Below are positions 5,029 to 34,300 of a DNA stretch of 64,000 nucleotides, piece after piece; position 1 is the stretch's first letter; the number at the start of each line of letters is the position of its first letter. A program made the translations under genes and the position numbers. The stretch lies in contig CAZXWN010000001.1 of assembly GCA_964644695.1 (NCBI GenBank), forward strand, positions 642,805 through 706,804, given 5' to 3'. Under the pieces are notes generated by a model, which was given only the letters and a program-made list of their open reading frames with translations, did no database searches and had not been told where the DNA came from. Origin of the DNA: an uncultured bacterium. GTDB lineage: Bacteria; UBP4; UBA4092.

Positions 5029-5715
5029 TTATATTCCTTTCACCCAACCTCCAGAACTAATAAATTGATCAGGATTATTTTGTTGACCAAAAAGATACTT
5101 TATTACTTGTACAGCGGTTGCCGCATCAGGAGCATATGCATCACAACCAATCTCTTCCGCAAACTTGTAGCTAACTGGAGCCCCCCCACACACTAATTTA
5201 ACCTTATCGCGCAAACCTTCTTTCTCTAAGGCCTGAACTACCAACCGAAAATTTACCATAGTGGTAGTTAATAACGCAGACATTCCAACAACAGTTGCTC
5301 CATGTTCTTTCACTATATTTACATATTTTTCAGGAGCATTATTAATTCCTATATCAATAACGGTAACTCCCGCTCCTTCCCACATCATTCCAACAAGATT
5401 TTTCCCAATGTCATGTAAATCACCCTTAATTGTTCCAAGAACTGCAGTACCTATCGGTTTAGCTCCAGTTTTTGTTAGTAAAGGCCGAAGAATCTCCATA
5501 GCAGATTTCATTGCTCTTGCTGATATCAAAACTTCTGGAACATAGATTAAGTTTCTTCTAAATCTATCACCGACCACATCCATTCCCGGTATGAGTCCTT
5601 GATTTAAAATAATTTCAGGAGGAATTCCATCACTTATGGCCTGATTTGTTAAAGAAACACATAGTTCTTGTTGGCCCTTAATTACACTCTCAGATATACC
5701 TTGATAATCTGCCAT
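5029..5715 (-). CDS. Corrinoid (cobalamin-binding) methyltransferase partner protein, MtbC/MttC-like
   Basis: Cap domain (GMDVVGDRF...YVPEVLISARAM) plus B12 motif DLHDIGKNLV...SALLTTT...GGAP; start 5715 follows GGAG. Confidence 0.9.
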   Translation of the reverse strand: MADYQGISESVIKGQQELCVSLTNQAISDGIPPEIILNQGLIPGMDVVGDRFRRNLIYVPEVLISARAMKSAMEILRPLLTKTGAKPIGTAVLGTIKGDLHDIGKNLVGMMWEGAGVTVIDIGINNAPEKYVNIVKEHGATVVGMSALLTTTMVNFRLVVQALEKEGLRDKVKLVCGGAPVSYKFAEEIGCDAYAPDAATAVQVIKYLFGQQNNPDQFISSGGWVKGI

Positions 5716-5796
5716 GTCAGAAATCTCCAAATAGGGTATTATAGGCAATATAAGCACCTAAGTTTTTATCATTTTATCAAACATTGAGGTAAAGAT

Positions 5797-21501: not shown

Positions 21502-21534
21502 AATACCGGTTAACAATTTATGTCAACCGGTATT
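21502..21534 (-). terminator. Hairpin terminating the GlmL-like operon
   Basis: 14-bp stem with one G-U pair (AATACCGGTTGACA / TGTTAACCGGTATT on minus), 13 nt past the stop at 21548. Confidence 0.65.
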
Positions 21535-21547
21535 AAAAGATAAACTT

Positions 21548-22213
21548 TTAGCTTAATCCAATAAATGGACCTAACCAATCCACTAAGAGAAAACGAATTC
21601 GCCCAATTACCAGTGAAACGCGGCCCATAACAGTGTAACCAAATGAGGCTCCAAAGAAGATCATTAAGTATATGATACCAATTTTAGATAAATATTTAAG
21701 TCCCTTATTCTGTTCAATGGAAAAAAAGAAATAAAACAAAACAGAAATAACACCTAATAAAATCAAGATATTGCTAATATCAGCAAAAGTAAAAATGTGC
21801 CATATATCTGACATATTGCCAGTAATTAAGGGGGTGATCGTAGAACTGCTTTGTTTCATCAATGAACCTTGAACACTGTATGGGATGCTAATTCCAGCTC
21901 CCACCCCGATGACAAATGAAATTGGAATACGGCTAATCCAAGATATATTTGAGAAGAAACGGGAAAACATCAACAATCCCAAAAATGCTGGAATAAGTAC
22001 CCAATAATTATGGTTGCTAAACAATTCATTTATCAAGTTTGGTTGTAAAACATTGTAATAAGCAATGCAAAGCGTATAACCTGCTGTCATTCCAACAAAG
22101 ATATGCTCTGCTAGTTTATACGCAGGGTTATCTTTATAAAGAAAGCTATAAATAGCTAATGTCAGAATAGCTGCTATCCAAATACCAATAGTTTCATTAC
22201 CAATCAATGCCAT
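21548..22213 (-). CDS. Uncharacterised polytopic membrane protein
   Basis: About 6 hydrophobic segments; SFLYKDNPAYKLAEHIFVG and FGASFGYTVMGR motifs. Confidence 0.8.
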   Translation of the reverse strand: MALIGNETIGIWIAAILTLAIYSFLYKDNPAYKLAEHIFVGMTAGYTLCIAYYNVLQPNLINELFSNHNYWVLIPAFLGLLMFSRFFSNISWISRIPISFVIGVGAGISIPYSVQGSLMKQSSSTITPLITGNMSDIWHIFTFADISNILILLGVISVLFYFFFSIEQNKGLKYLSKIGIIYLMIFFGASFGYTVMGRVSLVIGRIRFLLVDWLGPFIGLS

Positions 22214-22225
22214 AAGATGAGACCT

Positions 22226-23062
22226 CTAATCATTGTTCCGTTTCTTTTTATCAACTGTAAAGTACATAATATTGCCCAAAACAATCAGCAAAATGATAAA
22301 TATGTGAATAACTGATTGACTATCCATTCCTGCAGTTGCAGGCCCACTTTTACCATGTTTCCGTTTGTAGTCTATTAGTTTCTCATACTCTGAAGCACCT
22401 TTGAGACCACCAATAATTCCTGTAATCTGCTTTGCCTGTAAGGGGGGATAGTTCCCTGTAGCCATGACAGCCGTACAACCTGTTCCTATCCTGACTCGAT
22501 CTGGATATCGTTCATAACCATAATTAATCCAAGAAAAGACAGAAGAATCATCATGAATAACTACAATATAATCAAAATCCCGTAATTGATTAATACCTTT
22601 CATAACAGGTAATTCATCTAATTTTCTACGGTGATAATCCATTGGGTAGGTTTCACGGATATTATCACCCATACCAAGAACAACGGCATATCCCCCTGAT
22701 TTATAACCTAAATTGACATAATCAGTACCATTAACCTTGTTGTACATTTTGGCAACTTGGTTCATGTTTTTTTCAGCAATTGCAGCACCTGTATTTATCC
22801 ACATACACATGCCAACAACCTTTAGCTTCTTTTCAAAACAATGGCTTAATACAGCAGAAGCCATTGGATCTAACTCAGGACCCGAAGAGGGCTCGTAGTC
22901 ATAGACCAGTAAAACTTTACTACCCTCAGGAAGTTTTTCTATGGGATCATAAACCCCAAGGACTTCCTTCGTTGTTTTCACTTTTAAATTAAGAGGAAAA
23001 ATAATGGGTAGTGCAATAGCAATCACTACAAATAAATAAATAATTCGGCGGTCAAATTTCAT
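22226..23062 (-). CDS. Uncharacterised membrane protein (TM, soluble domain, TM)
   Basis: Terminal TMs flanking an approximately 210-aa alpha/beta domain (DYVNLGY, GGLKGASEYE). Confidence 0.8.
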   Translation of the reverse strand: MKFDRRIIYLFVVIAIALPIIFPLNLKVKTTKEVLGVYDPIEKLPEGSKVLLVYDYEPSSGPELDPMASAVLSHCFEKKLKVVGMCMWINTGAAIAEKNMNQVAKMYNKVNGTDYVNLGYKSGGYAVVLGMGDNIRETYPMDYHRRKLDELPVMKGINQLRDFDYIVVIHDDSSVFSWINYGYERYPDRVRIGTGCTAVMATGNYPPLQAKQITGIIGGLKGASEYEKLIDYKRKHGKSGPATAGMDSQSVIHIFIILLIVLGNIMYFTVDKKKRNND

Positions 23063-23718
23063 TAATCTTTACCCTGATAAGAGCGTTCAATACCTAAAAT
23101 TATTCTTAAAGAAGTGGCAATACCACCCAAAGCAACACCTAGCAAAACTGCACGACGGGCTGACATATTGAAAACATCGAGAATAAAACTGGTCATATTA
23201 TCCAATCCGAGAAACTTTATATTTTGAGGTAACGCATCCGTCAGCATTTCACCAAAAGGTATTCTGCCTACCATAACAATAATCGCAGCAATTAACATAA
23301 TTGTTGCTTCTATATTTCGGGCTCTAAAAGCTCTATATGAAGCGGAACAGATAAAAAATGCAGTCAGTGAAAAAGTGGTTGCTGCCAAGGGAAACTGAAT
23401 ATTATTGAAAGCCCACATAAAATAAGTTCCATCTTCAATACCCTTTGCAAACCCTAATATCGTCATTGTAAGAAAAGCGATAATCAGAGTCAAACTATAT
23501 CCCCACCCTGCACTCATATTATATATTCTACGTACATGAGCTCTTAAGAGGCTGCTGATACCTATTATCAAAGTAAAGGCAGCAATTAAGCGAATCCATT
23601 TAGTAGCGCCTTTAGACAAAGCCTCTGAGGCTTCCATAGGAACAAAAAACGTACCTATCATCAAAAATCCAACAATCAACACTATTAGGGTTGGTAACCT
23701 TCTTTTTAGAAAATCCAT
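23062..23718 (-). CDS. Uncharacterised polytopic membrane protein
   Basis: About 6 TMs; AFFICSASYRAFRARN and LRIILGIERSY motifs; translationally coupled to the next gene. Confidence 0.8.
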   Translation of the reverse strand: MDFLKRRLPTLIVLIVGFLMIGTFFVPMEASEALSKGATKWIRLIAAFTLIIGISSLLRAHVRRIYNMSAGWGYSLTLIIAFLTMTILGFAKGIEDGTYFMWAFNNIQFPLAATTFSLTAFFICSASYRAFRARNIEATIMLIAAIIVMVGRIPFGEMLTDALPQNIKFLGLDNMTSFILDVFNMSARRAVLLGVALGGIATSLRIILGIERSYQGKD

Positions 23719-23735
23719 TTTTCTATATCCTCTTA

Positions 23736-25013
23736 TTAAAACACTGTAAAGATTCGCTTAAACCAAAGCAGTACATCAAGATCAATTCCGTTTTGGGAAA
23801 GTAGCATATGTAGAGTCACTGCAATGGAAGCCAATATCATAAAAATAACTATCGTAATCTTTCCGGCATCCTGTCCTCGCAAACTGCCCAACAATTTGGG
23901 TTCACGAGACAAATATGCACTCGCCGCATATAATTCCTCACCGATAAGCGTATAGTCGCAAGAAACAATGAAAAAGGGCAACTGGAATGTAGAATCAGTT
24001 CCCGCTATCTGAATAGCACCCGTAGAAGCACCCGTTTCAGACAAAATAATAGCTTCTGCTGCAAAAGTCCCCAGAAAGAAATTAGCAGCAGGTTTTTCAC
24101 GTACCATGATGCCATCAACCGCCGCCGTAAACCCAAACTGATCTTCTGAGACATAGAATACATCATGAGGATTGAATGCATCTGGGCGACCAACATTCAG
24201 GTAGGCTTCACGAACTACCTCCTGACAAACACTCATGGCAATCGACCATCTACAGGGGACAATTATTCGTGAATCATAGTCAGCAACTTTTTTGGATACA
24301 TGGCTCAATATATTGACAGATGCTATCGTAGAAACAGAATCAATATCATTTGCACCGGTCAGATAAACTATAGGTTTTCCCATTTCAGTTGCTCTACCTA
24401 TAGCTTCTTCAATGGCTTCAAGCCCCGGTATACGTCGAATAAATAAATTAGGATTTCGCCGAGCTTTTTCAATGAAATAATAGATACATATAAATAAAAG
24501 AATGACGATTATAAAGTTGTTTATCTTATCAAACTTAAACCAATTTCCTTTAGCTTTTCCAATTATTGGCTGCGAAGTTTCTATTCGATTTATTGAATCA
24601 GTACCTACAGCGAGTTTCACATAAACAGGGGTTCTGTCAGGTAAAGAAATATCATAAAAGTGTTTAGATCGCGTAACCTTCTCATTGAAACCAAATACCG
24701 CAGGCTTTTCTGATTGAAATTGTTTACTTTCAAGAGAATCAAATTGTGCTACTTCAATAAAAGGGCCTTCAGCCTGATATGAGGTAAGAATTTGATAATA
24801 AGTGCCCTTTGATTCGCAGGAGGTTGCTGACCATATAACTGTAATACTCTTACCATTATCATTTGGTGTATCTATTACATGGACATCCGTTGGCAAACAC
24901 AACGATGGTGAAGGAATACCTTTATCGCCAGTATCTGTGGATTGTGCAATACAATTCCCAGCTAAAACTAACAGTACAGATAATAAAACCAATAATTTAA
25001 ATAATGATTTCAT
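23736..25013 (-). CDS. DUF6754-domain membrane protein with N-terminal Fn3-like exported domain
   Basis: Signal peptide, DTPNDNG..ITVIW; IRRIPGLEAIEEAIGRATEMGKP, QIAGT, DYTLIGEELYAASAYLS. Confidence 0.75.
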   Translation of the reverse strand: MKSLFKLLVLLSVLLVLAGNCIAQSTDTGDKGIPSPSLCLPTDVHVIDTPNDNGKSITVIWSATSCESKGTYYQILTSYQAEGPFIEVAQFDSLESKQFQSEKPAVFGFNEKVTRSKHFYDISLPDRTPVYVKLAVGTDSINRIETSQPIIGKAKGNWFKFDKINNFIIVILLFICIYYFIEKARRNPNLFIRRIPGLEAIEEAIGRATEMGKPIVYLTGANDIDSVSTIASVNILSHVSKKVADYDSRIIVPCRWSIAMSVCQEVVREAYLNVGRPDAFNPHDVFYVSEDQFGFTAAVDGIMVREKPAANFFLGTFAAEAIILSETGASTGAIQIAGTDSTFQLPFFIVSCDYTLIGEELYAASAYLSREPKLLGSLRGQDAGKITIVIFMILASIAVTLHMLLSQNGIDLDVLLWFKRIFTVF

Positions 25014-25018
25014 ACAAG

Positions 25019-26164
25019 TTACCTGTTCAATCCTTCAATTATTTCAACATTAGCTCGAGGTAAAACAGCAAGAGTTCCATCTTTCAACTTCACTTCAAGC
25101 ACACGAACTTTTGCTTCAGTTTCAATGTTCACCAACTCTGAAGGAAGGCTTGTAATTTCACCTAACTCTCCAAAATGTGGTTCCCTGATAATTCGAACGG
25201 TATTCCCAATCACTATTCCCGAAATATCACTAACGTCCGTATCTTTTACCATACTGTCCGCACCCTCTGCAAGAGGAATAATTACCTCGGGACGCATTAC
25301 CCCAGCACGGATTTGTGTTCTGCCAGTAATAGACGCTTTTTGAGAATGACTCTTTTTCAATAATTCATATGTTCTCTGGGCCATGGGGATTTTCCCAAAT
25401 CCCTCAGTAATAATCAAGGTCGTTGTAACATCCTCATCTCCAGTGATAGCTACTCCAATTTCATATCCGAGCCAATCTTTGATAACTTCAGCATCAATTC
25501 CACCAACAATGATTCCAGAGATACCCAGTTCATTCGCTTTTTTCAATGTGGGACCATCCACATAAGAACCACCAACAATAATCTTACCCTTCATATCAGG
25601 AGTAATCATTTTGTCCGTTAAGTGTTCACTGGGAGAATCACCTAATACCAATAACTCTCCGTTTTGTTCACCACCGATCCCAAAGATACCTTGGATATAA
25701 GTAGCTTGGTTCTGAATAGTTACCCCAAACCCATCTTCAATTTCAGTAACAGTACCAGATAGATAGGCACTTAATTCTACATGTCGTGGGGGCATTCGTA
25801 ATAGAACCTGACCTGTGATTGTGGAAATATTTTCAATAGTTCCATCAATAGGAGAAGGAATTGTTTTCTGAAATAATTTAATACCAAACATCGGTTTATT
25901 TTCAGCGATGGCTTCCCCCTGTTTGATGGCCTCACCTTCCTTTTTCAACATGTATGAATGGATATCTACAGGTTCAATGGATAGTAAATTTGCAATATTG
26001 ATTGACTGAACTTCATTAGGCAATTCAGTCCGGGCAACATATTGCTCCGAAGTAACTTTGTCTCCAACTTTAACCATAACTTCACCTTTTAAAGGTAAAG
26101 TACGTGTTTTGGACACAATTGTTTTTTCAAAAACCTGGAGTCCAGGGGTATATGCATGGGCCAT
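25019..26164 (-). CDS. Uncharacterised soluble protein with barrel-sandwich-hybrid-like repeats and C-terminal KOW-like motif
   Basis: GEVMVKVGDKV, KEGEAIKQGEAIA, SPIDGTI; C-terminal GNTVRIIREPHFGELGEI. Confidence 0.75.
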   Translation of the reverse strand: MAHAYTPGLQVFEKTIVSKTRTLPLKGEVMVKVGDKVTSEQYVARTELPNEVQSINIANLLSIEPVDIHSYMLKKEGEAIKQGEAIAENKPMFGIKLFQKTIPSPIDGTIENISTITGQVLLRMPPRHVELSAYLSGTVTEIEDGFGVTIQNQATYIQGIFGIGGEQNGELLVLGDSPSEHLTDKMITPDMKGKIIVGGSYVDGPTLKKANELGISGIIVGGIDAEVIKDWLGYEIGVAITGDEDVTTTLIITEGFGKIPMAQRTYELLKKSHSQKASITGRTQIRAGVMRPEVIIPLAEGADSMVKDTDVSDISGIVIGNTVRIIREPHFGELGEITSLPSELVNIETEAKVRVLEVKLKDGTLAVLPRANVEIIEGLNR

Positions 26165-26192
26165 TATTCAAATCTCCCAATCATTTTATTCA

Positions 26193-27986
26193 CTAAATAT
26201 TTGGATACATCGACATAGCATTAAACCAGCGTTTGAGCTGATCTATTCGATCCTGTTCTTTCACAGCTAAGGCTAAAGGTCTTCCCCGTGTATCAATAAC
26301 AACACCAGCAACACCGCCCATTAATTCAGCACGAAGAGTTTTCCCAAGGCCAGCGCCTGCATCATATTTTCCTTTAGGTGTGATTTCAATAGATACCTTT
26401 TGATCTTTTGTTGCAGGATACAGCTTCAATTCGCCAAAGGGTAATGAATCATTGAATGTTTCTGAACCAATGGTTAAAGAATAACTCACACAATCATCAC
26501 CAGGTTTTCCTGTTCCAGTGACTGCCACACAAGTTCCTAAATTAATCAAACAGTCTTTCTCAAAAACTTCTGTGGCAGCTGCTTCATGAACTTCTGCCAA
26601 AACACCTAAATGGGGCATCATAAAGATGGAGTCAACCGCCAAACGAGTAATACCTTCACATTGGAAAGCATCCATCATCATTAACATGGATTGCACACGT
26701 CGAGGGGCGTGGGATAAAACTCCACCAGAACCAATCAACAAATCCAGACTCTTCATGTTAATTAAACTCTGGCCTGATTCTACTTGTTTGAAAGAATCCG
26801 CAATGGACCTTTCCTGTTGTACACCCTTAAGTCCAACCGCCAGTAATTTATGTTGGTCCAAAGCAAGACGCAGAGCCTCACGGCAAATAGCCTGTTCCAG
26901 GATGAGATCTTCCAAGGTCTGCGGTATTGTGGTAGGTCGAATCATTTTATTCTTAATGCGGTTATTAATATCCTTTTCAGTAAACGGAAAAGGTACCCAA
27001 CGAAGAATGTTTTTAATTCCCGCATCAGCTAACACATTAGACACTGAATAACTCATTCCTAAATTGGCCGATACAGTTCGATTGAATACTGTTTCAAAAA
27101 CAGAAAAGACATCCGTAGTGGCGCCCCCAATATCTACACCCAAGGCATTAATTCCCTGGCTTTTAGCAACTTTTTCAATCAGATATCCGACAGCAGCTGG
27201 CGTCGGCATAATGGGTCTGCCAACCCATTCTTTGAGTTTCCCATATCCAGGAGCCTGCGCCATAACATGTTCCATAAACATGTCTTGAATTTTCATGCGG
27301 GCAGGTCCAAGGTTTTCTTTTTCAAGTGTGGGGCGAATATTATCCGTAATCACTAAATCAACAATCTTGCCTAAACTTTTGGTAATCTCGTCTCGAGCCT
27401 TAATATTCCCGGCATAGATAACAGGAAGCCGATAAGTATGACCTAATCGAGGACGAGGATTGGCGGCGGCGATATATTCTGCCAGCTCGACAACATGAGT
27501 AATAGTACCCCCATCGGTACCACCAGACAAAAGAATCATGTCAGGACGAAAACCCCTAATCCGCTCAATTTTTTGATGAGGCAAACGACCGTCATTGGAA
27601 GCCAGAACATCCATAACAATAGCCCCGCCACCCAAAGCCGCACGCTGAGCACTTTCACCAGTCATAGACTTTACTGCACCTGCGACTAACATCTGGAGTC
27701 CACCCCCAGCGGATGAAGTAGATATATATATATCCACGCCATGTTTATCCTTGGCGGGGGTGATAATCTTTTCACCATCCAAAATCTTTCGCCCGGATAA
27801 TTCTTCTACTTCAGCAATGGCATTGAGAACACCTCGGGTTACATCATTAAAAGGCGCTTCAACAGTCGTTGGAGCTTCCCCACGATAGGTCTGTCGGTAT
27901 TCTCCATTCACTTTTTCTATCAGAATAGCTTTAGTTGTTGTACTGCCACAATCGGTTGCGATAATTACATTTAATGGATTATCCAT
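26193..27986 (-). CDS. Glutamate mutase L (GlmL/MutL)-like ASKHA ATPase
   Basis: DCGSTTTK, TSSAGGGL, LLSGGTDGG, MPTP, VDIGGATTDVFS, GSGGVLSH. Confidence 0.85.
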   Translation of the reverse strand: MDNPLNVIIATDCGSTTTKAILIEKVNGEYRQTYRGEAPTTVEAPFNDVTRGVLNAIAEVEELSGRKILDGEKIITPAKDKHGVDIYISTSSAGGGLQMLVAGAVKSMTGESAQRAALGGGAIVMDVLASNDGRLPHQKIERIRGFRPDMILLSGGTDGGTITHVVELAEYIAAANPRPRLGHTYRLPVIYAGNIKARDEITKSLGKIVDLVITDNIRPTLEKENLGPARMKIQDMFMEHVMAQAPGYGKLKEWVGRPIMPTPAAVGYLIEKVAKSQGINALGVDIGGATTDVFSVFETVFNRTVSANLGMSYSVSNVLADAGIKNILRWVPFPFTEKDINNRIKNKMIRPTTIPQTLEDLILEQAICREALRLALDQHKLLAVGLKGVQQERSIADSFKQVESGQSLINMKSLDLLIGSGGVLSHAPRRVQSMLMMMDAFQCEGITRLAVDSIFMMPHLGVLAEVHEAAATEVFEKDCLINLGTCVAVTGTGKPGDDCVSYSLTIGSETFNDSLPFGELKLYPATKDQKVSIEITPKGKYDAGAGLGKTLRAELMGGVAGVVIDTRGRPLALAVKEQDRIDQLKRWFNAMSMYPNI

Positions 27987-28320
27987 TGTTTTTTTCCCTT
28001 GATTGAGCTCGTTCTTCAATTCTTCGGATAAATAATTCAAGTCCCTGTCGGTGCTCCAGGATTCGAATCACTTTTTCATAATCTTTCTGTGATATAAACG
28101 GATCCATATAAGGCTGTATAACTGTCATTAATTGGCTGCTTACAAAATTTAACGGCATCACGGAATACAAAGTCCAGACAGCACTGGTTACCAATCGTTT
28201 TTTTATTATGTAATCAATTACCTTATCCAGTACCTTCAAATCATCCTCGGTTGGTTCAGGACAACTTTCCAGTGTAAAGGCATTCCGAATCATATCTTTC
28301 AAACGATTGATTTTATTCAA
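27979..28320 (-). CDS. Hypothetical helical protein
   Basis: 113-aa ORF coupled to both neighbours; PLNFVSSQ...LEHR. Confidence 0.7.
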   Translation of the reverse strand: MNKINRLKDMIRNAFTLESCPEPTEDDLKVLDKVIDYIIKKRLVTSAVWTLYSVMPLNFVSSQLMTVIQPYMDPFISQKDYEKVIRILEHRQGLELFIRRIEERAQSREKNNG

Positions 28321-28321
28321 A

Positions 28322-28753
28322 TTAATAACATTCTTTCAAGTGTTTTTTCAAAGATTCAAGAAGGACTTCTGAAACAGGTCCTTCTGGAAGTATTAAATAA
28401 AGCCCACGAAAACTATCCAGACGATGAGGAATCTCGAAGGTCGATAACTGAATACCACGTCGACATTGATAAAAACAACGAAATTCTGACCATCTGCGTT
28501 CATAGCAAGCCAGAGGGGTTTTAACACGCACCCGCTGGTCATCTATATCATAATGAATGGGGATAAAATACCGTGACAACGCCCCGACTAATAACACTAC
28601 TGACAATAGGGAAAAAGCCACACTCTGATAGCTAACTAAAATAATCAGAGCAATCGACAGGATAAACAAAAGAATCACTAGGGTTTTTAACCTGGATTCG
28701 TTGGCCAGATGAACATCCCAGCTATAAATGAGTTTTTCCTGTTTATCTCCCAC
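28322..28753 (-). CDS. Hypothetical 2-TM protein with C-terminal PH/YcxB-like domain
   Basis: Two TMs, then YDIDDQRV...RRWSEFR...RLDSFRGLYL; start uncertain (GTG 28753 or 28828). Confidence 0.65.
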   Translation of the reverse strand: MGDKQEKLIYSWDVHLANESRLKTLVILLFILSIALIILVSYQSVAFSLLSVVLLVGALSRYFIPIHYDIDDQRVRVKTPLACYERRWSEFRCFYQCRRGIQLSTFEIPHRLDSFRGLYLILPEGPVSEVLLESLKKHLKECY

Positions 28754-28866
28754 AAGTCCAATCTCTATCTCTATTTTTACTAAATTATGAATGTTACCAC
28801 AGGGTACCGAGTAAGTAAATAATATCAAAATCCCATTTTATTATCGAAAATTCAATCAGCATGTAT

Positions 28867-28892
28867 ATCGAACGAGATCGATCTTGTTCGAT
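28867..28892. promoter_or_regulatory. 26-bp near-perfect palindrome in divergent promoter region, candidate operator
   Basis: ATCGAACGAGATC|GATCTTGTTCGAT, one mismatch. Confidence 0.4.
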
Positions 28893-28987
28893 GATTGTTT
28901 TGGCGTTCAATTACCCTAATTTTTGACTATAAAAGTAGATAGTTAAACATGTTACAATAAGGAAATTTAATTAAAAGGATACTTATT

Positions 28988-30067
28988 ATGTCTGAAAGCA
29001 AAGTAACCCTTATAAAAGAACGCTTAAAAGAAGTAAAATATCCTGGATACAGCCGGGATATAGTGTCATTTGGATTTATAAAGAAAGTTGCCGAATGCGA
29101 TGGCCTAGTAAAAATTGAACTCCAGGCCACCGGATTGAATGACTCTGTAAAAGCCACCATTATCCAAGACATTCAAAATTTACTGCAAAAAGAATCCGGA
29201 ATTAAAGAAGTGGCTGTTTCTTTTGTTGACCCCGCCCCCGCTCCAACACAACCACCACTCAAAAAGACGAATCCCAATGACCCATGGCAAGACCAAATAC
29301 CTGTGGAAGGCGTTGAAAACATCATTGCCGTTGCCAGTGGTAAAGGTGGCGTTGGAAAATCCACAGTGTCTGTTAATTTAGCCTGTGCCTTAAAATCTTT
29401 AGGTTATCGCGTTGGACTAATGGATTGTGATATCTATGGACCGAGTATCCCAATAATGGTCGGAACCCACGAAAAGCCACAAGTAATTGGTGAGGATCGC
29501 CTGGTACCGATTCAAAAGTATGGATTAAATATCATGTCTATAGGCTTTATGATTGATGAAGATGAACCCGTTATCTGGCGTGGGCCTATGATTCAGAGTG
29601 CCATCAAACAATTCTTACATGGTGTAAACTGGGGCCCCTTGGATTACCTTATTGTTGATTTACCCCCTGGGACAGGTGATGCACAGTTAAGCCTGGCACA
29701 ACAAGTCCCAATCACGGGTTCTGTGATTGTAAGTACCCCCCAGGATGTAGCTCTGATTGATGCCAAAAAAGGGGTTGCCATGTTCAAAAAAATCAATGTT
29801 CCCGTTCTGGGAATAGTTGAGAACATGTCTGGATTCATTTGTCCGCATTGTGGTGAAAGAACAGATATTTTCAGCACCGGTGGTGGGAAGAAGGAAGCTG
29901 AGAAACAAAATGTGGATTTTTTAGGCGATGTTCCACTCGACCTGGCAATCCGGCAACAGGGTGATAGTGGAATTCCCATCGTTGTTGCACAACCAGATTC
30001 CAGCCAATCGAATGCTTTTTTGAGTATTGCCAAAAAAGTCGCTGAAATCATTAAGAATAAAAAATAG
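28988..30067 (+). CDS. mrp: Mrp/ApbC Fe-S cluster carrier ATPase with N-terminal DUF59-like domain
   Basis: ASGKGGVGKST, DCDIYGPS, WRGPM, DLPPGTGD, ENMS..CPHC. Confidence 0.93.
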   Translation: MSESKVTLIKERLKEVKYPGYSRDIVSFGFIKKVAECDGLVKIELQATGLNDSVKATIIQDIQNLLQKESGIKEVAVSFVDPAPAPTQPPLKKTNPNDPWQDQIPVEGVENIIAVASGKGGVGKSTVSVNLACALKSLGYRVGLMDCDIYGPSIPIMVGTHEKPQVIGEDRLVPIQKYGLNIMSIGFMIDEDEPVIWRGPMIQSAIKQFLHGVNWGPLDYLIVDLPPGTGDAQLSLAQQVPITGSVIVSTPQDVALIDAKKGVAMFKKINVPVLGIVENMSGFICPHCGERTDIFSTGGGKKEAEKQNVDFLGDVPLDLAIRQQGDSGIPIVVAQPDSSQSNAFLSIAKKVAEIIKNKK

Positions 30068-34223: not shown

Positions 34224-34300
34224 TGGTGGGCGCTACAGGACTCGAACCTGTGACCTCTACCATGTCAAGGTAGCACTCTAACCAGCTGAGCTAAGCGCCC
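34224..34300 (-). tRNA. tRNA-Val (anticodon GAC), CCA encoded
   Basis: GGGCGCTTAGCTCAGCTGGTTAGAGTGCTACCTTGACATGGTAGAGGTCACAGGTTCGAGTCCTGTAGCGCCCACCA folds as a cloverleaf. Confidence 0.97.

Follow-up and report, generated by a model that had tools for sequence, protein, structure and literature searches.

Energy-coupling factor (ECF) importers and some ATP-binding cassette (ABC) importers follow a logic in which one energizer serves several specific membrane units, and the diol/glycerol dehydratase reactivase DdrA combines an ASKHA (actin-fold) ATPase with a swiveling domain. MutL/GlmL is described in one paper as a chaperone that reactivates glutamate mutase (PMC4682846). Here we analyze an eight-gene operon with a GlmL-like ATPase from an uncultured bacterium (GTDB lineage Bacteria; UBP4; UBA4092), contained in a 64,000-nucleotide stretch of contig CAZXWN010000001.1 (positions 642,805 to 706,804 of the forward strand), hereafter the window. 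Sequence comparisons indicate that this ATPase (g3) is not a B12-mutase helper despite its database label. The reading that we prefer, with confidence falling slightly short of even, is that a shared actin-fold ATPase module drives interchangeable importer cassettes whose substrate is probably amino acids or peptides. The features of the operon are as follows.

g1, 28322..28753, minus strand: 143 residues; two predicted membrane helices and a small beta-rich domain, possibly PH-like; accessory
g2, 27979..28320, minus strand: 113 residues; small and probably helical, without a known family; near-constant member
g3, 26193..27986, minus strand: 597 residues; ASKHA (actin-fold) ATPase related to GlmL/MutL, with a C-terminal extension of ~115 residues
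g4, 25019..26164, minus strand: 381 residues; soluble partner with a three-part predicted fold
g5, 23736..25013, minus strand: 425 residues; DUF6754 protein
g6, 23062..23718, minus strand: 218 residues; membrane protein with ~6 predicted helices, without a known family
g7, 22226..23062, minus strand: 278 residues; Rossmann-like domain between two helices
g8, 21548..22213, minus strand: 221 residues; membrane protein with ~6 predicted helices, without a known family
Stem-loop, 21502-21534, minus strand: probable terminator that ends the operon before efp; folding z -5.3

All eight same-strand open reading frames that the initial annotation had placed at 21548..28753 were confirmed, on the minus strand, and its gaps of no more than 28 bp or overlaps were measured as 1, -8, 28, 5, 17, -1, and 12 bp from g1 to g8. 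Start codons were set at GTG 28753 for g1 and ATG 27986 for g3, the latter because relatives of g3 align from that methionine; longer TTG frames were not used.

The ATPase is tied genetically to the membrane genes. DUF6754 was present in all 46 genomes chosen for the ATPase, and among 79 genomes of the phylum of genome G053 (completeness not given), 34 carried both genes, 40 neither, one the ATPase only and four DUF6754 only. The two genes were often unlinked in this set; in G094 the ATPase lies at ~98 kb and DUF6754 at 1.97, 3.58, and 3.68 Mb. This co-occurrence upholds the proposed tie between the ATPase and the membrane genes at the genetic level, while powering of the membrane proteins, which had been proposed with it, is not part of that support. 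A census of 177 loci (L001-L080 and L117-L213, a few stretches being counted twice, e.g., L124/L077) counted 164 copies of g5, of which 123 have g6-g7-g8 after them. More than one g5 (some partial) occurs in 13 loci and two or three whole cassettes in 7, and g3 and g4 are duplicated in none of the 177. Paralogous cassettes share 50-65% identity in the g5 core, 37-60% in g6, 38-52% in g7, and 45-59% in g8, and cassettes of one type resemble each other across genomes more than they resemble their tandem neighbors, except in L157. The paralogous cassettes are old, diverged types common to several genomes; one type is without the outer Fn3-like domain of g5, and the predicted outer domain of g7 is among the parts that vary most between paralogues. 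As a correction to the first description, the unit is modular, with one ATPase-partner pair and one to several four-gene cassettes, and the arrangement of one energizing module with several membrane units is present as a genetic pattern only.

Gene order was examined in the best 80 of 140 ATPase relatives in GTDB contigs (63-79% identity to g3), whose source records are titled Latescibacterota, Gemmatimonadota, Neomarinimicrobiota, Sumerlaeota, Oligoflexia, Caldithrix, and Acidobacteriota; some of these titles are unreliable as taxonomy, as L075, L076, L079, and L080, with Caldithrix or Alphaproteobacteria titles, fall in one phylum, that of the 79 genomes. The order g3-g4-g5-g6-g7-g8 was intact in 53 of the 80 loci and is thus conserved; as read from coordinates, 20 of the remaining 27 were cut by the sequence edge and 7 were split or rearranged (L003, L033, L037, L041, L076, L079, and L080). 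Membership of the operon as first drawn has to be corrected: g1 is accessory (47/80 loci, 36/53 complete ones), g2 is near-constant with a varying position (69/80 and 52/53), and the Fn3-like domain is dispensable because short g5 paralogues are without it. Spread of the module is patchy, with 8 of 301 sampled genomes in the phylum of G052 and 4 of 5 in the window's own phylum; it was found in none of 14 control genomes, and no DUF6754 relatives were found in a plasmid collection. By family size, g7 comprises 3280 clusters at 50% identity, and g5 and g4 comprise at least 8000 and 6666 proteins, respectively, at 90%.

Several local variants were also recorded. Between 5 and 12 unrelated genes, among them TerC, aldo-keto reductase, pyrophosphatase, and dienelactone hydrolase genes, separate g3 from g4 in L079, L080, L128-L131, and L136, where the cassette lies elsewhere. 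The cassette is on the strand opposite to g3-g4 in the Oligoflexia-titled L033, L037, and L041; L042-type loci (Neomarinimicrobiota-titled) have a g6 of ~343 residues with an internal insert, a short g5, and g2 between g4 and g5. In L177, L184, L187, L196, L203, and L205, which belong to one lineage, the gene after g8 is Memo-like (AmmeMemoRadiSam B).

The initial annotation had called the ATPase an orphan, with no mutase gene in the operon or window and no tie to glmS/glmE, and the genome searches and the ATPase tree both bear this out. The mutases searched for were likewise absent from the organism's own genome (98.7% complete), in which no glutamate mutase E, lysine/ornithine aminomutase, methylmalonyl-CoA mutase, or EutB was found, nor any diol dehydratase in a search without a positive control; the own-genome control of the aminomutase search was silent, but the family was detected in 3 other genomes. 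A single MutL-family gene scores above cut-off in that genome, which also carries a single DUF6754 gene. Among 50 module genomes tested, GlmE was above cut-off in none and lysine aminomutase was found in 3. The g3 protein matches PF13941 MutL (E 2.7e-124) and falls under the cut-offs of NF040745 (225 vs. 475 bits), NF040744 (210 vs. 600), and TIGR01319 (159 vs. 204). It has the ASKHA fold with both phosphate loops, and these loops, described as intact, are invariant as DCGSTTTK and DIGGATT in 34/34 aligned relatives. Six mutase-linked GlmL proteins of 461-467 residues, four from annotated genes between glmS and glmE and two from unannotated records, are 26-31% identical to g3 over 394-503 columns, and a quick, unrooted tree (midpoint root, long branches flagged) separates 35 module ATPases from these six by a long branch with support 100. 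The six mutase loci contain no relative of the other seven operon genes. Of the suggestion that the ATPase was repurposed for a membrane machine, the genetic link stands, whereas a direction "from reactivase" is one that an unrooted tree does not give. A weak alignment with B12-binding domains (probability 11.6%, E 0.0026) covers g3 residues 137-207.

Other observations concern B12 proteins and g3 itself. A stand-alone corrinoid (B12-binding) protein is encoded at 5029-5757 and a second at C1:225454 of the same genome, with no sign of a tie to the module, and in L163, L167, and L206, which are of one lineage, stand-alone cassettes have a methionine-synthase-like B12 gene nearby on the other strand. 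In L126 (474+131 residues) and L073 (break near residue 320-380), g3 is in two pieces, reflecting a frameshift or assembly error.

The partner g4, introduced as a 381-residue multidomain soluble protein, gave a model (pLDDT 87) that supports this description with three fold regions in predicted structure: nested barrel-sandwich hybrids (15-151), a swiveling beta/beta/alpha domain (154-298), and a KOW/SH3-like domain (314-381). Fold comparisons of g4 gave middling Z values, which show the fold only. The swiveling domain, of a fold common to many families, matched enzyme I (Z 9.2, root-mean-square deviation (rmsd) 2.7, 105 aligned) and, more broadly, the phospho-histidine domains of enzyme I, rifampin phosphotransferase, and pyruvate kinase (Z 8.2-9.2) as well as RraA (Z 8.3). 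RnfC (Z 7.9, rmsd 3.2, 67 aligned) and NqrA resemble the barrel-sandwich region, the KOW domain of NusG was matched at Z 8.3 (rmsd 2.0, 54 aligned), and a KOW and barrel-sandwich likeness to Thermotoga NusG was given by Foldseek at E 1.8e-5 with a TM score of 0.14. At profile E values of up to 1, RnfC_N was found in 113/125 and KOW in 57/125 g4 members. His3 is the only conserved histidine (121/125), there being none in the swiveling domain, and the residue at the barrel-sandwich hairpin is lysine in 93/125 and arginine in 22/125 and lies in a lengthened loop; the invariant lysine in a tight hairpin that marks lipoyl/biotinyl carriers was not found in g4.

Among the cassette proteins, g5 is a full member of DUF6754 (PF20539; E 2e-117, 391 bits vs. 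a cut-off of 27), with a predicted signal peptide, an optional Fn3-like outer domain, a membrane helix, a strongly conserved alpha/beta domain predicted inside, and a C-terminal membrane helix. The DUF6754 part of the original description therefore holds; the exported Fn3-like part depends on an N-terminus read by eye as resembling a signal peptide and on one weak profile match to 2uve (E 0.032). In the inner domain Arg193, Arg207, Glu210, Arg305, Glu320, and Glu326 are invariant (88/88); Asp382 and Lys385, in or beside predicted membrane helices, are conserved in 87/88 and Cys352 in 85/88. The g7 protein consists of an N-terminal helix (5-21), a Rossmann-like alpha/beta domain, and a long C-terminal helix (241-277) in which His253 (208/219) and Asn264 are conserved; its model (pLDDT 97) best matched MTH777 (1kjn; Z 9.8, rmsd 3.2, 138 aligned), followed closely by a tie among dehydrogenases, RCK domains, and binding proteins. 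The topology of g5 and g7, read by eye from hydropathy and basic residues, would place the g7 domain outside and the DUF6754 domain inside the cell, and a CARDB insert in a g7 relative fits this outer position. Large inserts occur in the g7 relatives P0295 and P0264, namely HEAT repeats (643 residues) and a CARDB-containing stretch (838 residues). A conserved ASAAYRxFRAR loop characterizes g6, and Glu36 (83/84) and an FGASFG motif characterize g8; neither protein matched Pfam or NCBIfam.

No significant match among solved structures was obtained for g3-g8 by sequence or profile search (best E 0.032), the fold matches listed for g4 and g7 include neither DdrA nor known transporter subunits, and the ESM Atlas gave only unnamed clusters for g7 and no usable named match for g5 160-425. 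Paralogy of g5 with g7 or of g6 with g8, as inverted-topology pairs, was not seen (hhalign probability <3%), and a SIS-like pattern noticed by eye in g5 was not confirmed, the g5 profile having no second match in its own genome. A complex prediction for g5(150-425), g6, and g8 with g7 as partner scored 0.61 and one control 0.79, and cassette subunits covaried no more strongly than shuffled pairs did (123 rows, ~77 effective). For the small proteins, just one of the 22 g1 relatives that were scanned matched bPH_6 (E 0.012), and g2 gave no Pfam match in 13 relatives.

Clues to the substrate come from neighboring genes, compared across 19 lineage groups defined on a tree. In 42 loci, which belong to 2 of the 19 lineages, genes for a peptide ABC transporter are inserted between g3 and g4 or immediately precede the operon. 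A complete peptide ABC operon of the same family as the one embedded in the module in other phyla is present in the own genome (C1:399761-405361) and in 5/5 other genomes; a role of g3 in replacing missing Opp ATPases was rejected, since this complete Opp-type operon has ATPases of its own. Catabolic neighbors include the branched-chain transaminase IlvE, GcvP, 2-oxoacid oxidoreductase, a SoxB-like oxidase, Glu/Leu/Phe/Val dehydrogenase, and peptidases. Within 5 kb, lipoate-related genes occur in 5 of the 19 lineages: LipA (L158), GcvP (L049, L168), dihydrolipoyl dehydrogenase (L126), and an LplA-like gene (the Latescibacterota group; L188). LipA is present in 28/34 genomes with the module and 33/40 without it, and GcvH in 76/79 regardless of the module. 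A lipoate importer for cells without LipA found no support, LipA being equally common with and without the module.

Under our preferred reading, g3 and g4 would form one shared cytoplasmic motor that drives the four-protein membrane cassette g5-g8 as an importer, with amino acids, short peptides, or related small acids as the probable cargo. The motor would dock on the invariant inner domain of g5, which holds most of the invariant charged residues, as expected of a docking site. Binding and hydrolysis of ATP would open and close the actin-fold cleft, and the mobile g4 domains would lever g5; g6 and g8, with helices of g5 and g7, may form a path lined by polar residues (g8 Glu36; g7 His253 and Asn264; g5 Asp382 and Lys385), with the outer domain of g7 picking the substrate and g2 and g1 acting as putative assembly or regulatory helpers. 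The docking of motor and cassette, their coupling, and the direction of import are what we infer here. Several points weigh against this mechanism. We know of no ASKHA ATPase that serves as a transporter motor, no subunit significantly matches a known transporter family, and the copy-number pattern fits a signaling system equally well. The genomes of the 79-genome set are related and do not represent 79 independent cases of co-occurrence, and the peptide ABC system, having its own ATPases, does not borrow g3. The substrate is read from neighbors, the catabolic genes were pooled after the fact, and 359 of 370 neighbor families occur in a single lineage, so that the cargo can be suggested only weakly.

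The database label itself would make g3 an ordinary GlmL that reactivates a B12 mutase, with the membrane genes adjoining by chance. Both the PF13941 match and the ASKHA motifs common to g3 and mutase-linked GlmL agree with this, but GlmE in 0/50 and lysine aminomutase in 3/50 genomes with no mutase in the own genome, scores below all three NCBIfam cut-offs, the separate branch with support 100, and DUF6754 in 46/46 ATPase genomes largely refute it, and we regard it as very remote. Another reading is a remodeling chaperone: g3-g4 would act like a B12-enzyme reactivase, with ATP opening, assembling, or repairing the cassette, itself an enzyme, ion-driven carrier, or channel. Such a role is unlikely, though it has in its favor that an ASKHA ATPase with a swiveling domain is the make-up of DdrA, that g3 137-207 has the likeness to B12-binding domains that a subunit mimic might show, and that the nearest characterized relatives are described as reactivating chaperones (PMC4682846). 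That likeness is weak, however, no client enzyme travels with the module, and the 63-79% identity of g3 across phyla suggests a fixed, much-used interface.

If the cassettes were instead receptors and g3-g4 a shared nucleotide switch relaying a signal, perhaps via the KOW domain, then several cassette types per single ATPase pair, the variable outer domains, and the resemblance of g4 to Thermotoga NusG (close by Foldseek E value but not by TM score) would all find a place. We nevertheless consider envelope sensing rather improbable, as no regulator or kinase is constant among the neighbors and two six-helix subunits with conserved buried polar residues would seem to exceed what a receptor needs. 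A lipoate-linked machine, whether an importer of lipoate, lipoyl peptides, or octanoate or one in the service of lipoyl-dependent enzymes, is to our minds a shade more doubtful still. The lipoate-related genes in 5/19 lineages and the lipoyl-like barrel-sandwich domains of g4 speak for it, but that neighbor count pools four gene families, LipA and GcvH frequencies do not track the module, arginine replaces the g4 hairpin lysine in 22/125 members with the loop lengthened, and three old cassette types are more than a single vitamin accounts for. Group translocation of the kinase type, in which g3 would phosphorylate a carrier or the incoming substrate and the g4 swivel would be the phosphocarrier, draws on the closeness of the g4 middle domain to phospho-histidine domains and on the conservation of g4 His3 (121/125) and g5 Cys352 (85/88). 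Because the swivel domain has no conserved histidine, as a phosphotransferase system (PTS) relay would have, and RraA, which carries no phosphate, lies within 1 Z unit, we judge it quite improbable.

At the ends of the operon, the predicted closing hairpin (21502-21534) was recovered by folding (14 pairs, -19.7 kcal/mol, z -5.3, 0/200 shuffles as good); its U-run is short and it is absent from the terminator-scan output. Downstream, efp adjoins the operon, with a sigma-70-like site at 21498-21469, such sites being as frequent in shuffled sequence and not enriched. A divergent Mrp/NBP35 gene begins at 28988, upstream of g1; it is followed to 33339 by a 102-residue gene and lipid A genes, and the same flank is kept in locus L001. 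An imperfect inverted repeat at 28866-28893, between g1 and Mrp/NBP35, is a possible operator (folding z only -1.3). A tRNA gene lies at 34227-34300 on the minus strand, and apart from one tRNA, a scan of the window and 27 loci yielded neither riboswitches nor other Rfam matches.

No experimental description had been known to the initial annotation, and none was found in the open literature, where the GlmL papers listed were screened by title and start of abstract; subscription papers and supplements lay outside the search. Nor was any mention of DUF6754 or PF13941 found there. The glutamate-mutase label of the ATPase hides the system and can wrongly suggest B12-dependent glutamate fermentation. 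Tentatively, and with somewhat less confidence than we place in the mechanism, we propose a new primary class of ATP-driven importer beside ABC/ECF and P-type systems, in which interchangeable four-protein cassettes share an actin/Hsp70-fold motor that works through a swiveling-domain partner. Such a class would be common among poorly cultured phyla, and import could be the original role of the family that gave rise to B12-mutase reactivases. To our knowledge no transporter is driven by an actin-fold ATPase, and an importer, if confirmed, would be a new kind of ATP-driven transporter; even under the rival explanations the module would be an envelope machine new to the literature, carried by uncultured lineages that are peptide-degrading, anammox-related, or predatory. 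The compact single operon makes it easy to express and test, and the window copy, plain, uninterrupted, and single-copy, is a good expression template.

By the membership tests that could be run, the module is not a GlmL, ABC, PTS, or Rnf/Nqr system, and DUF6754, to which g5 belongs, is a family without a described function. The motifs GSTxTK, SSAAGGL, DxGGATTD, and GxGG of the GlmL/MutL of glutamate (methylaspartate) mutase and of Or-4 of ornithine aminomutase align with g3. In contrast to mutase GlmL, however, g3 is longer (597 vs. 461-467 residues), has the C-terminal extension, is without the loop after the second phosphate motif, and neighbors g4 and membrane genes, whereas GlmL sits between glmS and glmE. 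DdrAB shows the same combination of ASKHA and swiveling beta/beta/alpha domains, which in the module is on two chains, but the module has four membrane partners and no dehydratase was found in the own genome in the search made without a positive control. Rnf/Nqr resembles it in the barrel-sandwich of g4, which is like the N-termini of RnfC and NqrA, and in two membrane subunits of ~220 residues. No cysteine reaches 90% conservation in g4, g6, g7, or g8, so that there is no iron-sulfur motif, unlike in Rnf/Nqr, and an ATPase stands in place of the flavoproteins. None of the eight proteins matched ABC_tran or any ABC/ECF family in Pfam or NCBIfam. ECF and ABC importers likewise have one ATPase module and several diverged membrane units, beside it or elsewhere, but their ATPase is a P-loop ABC domain with LSGGQ, whereas that of the present module, g3, has the actin fold.

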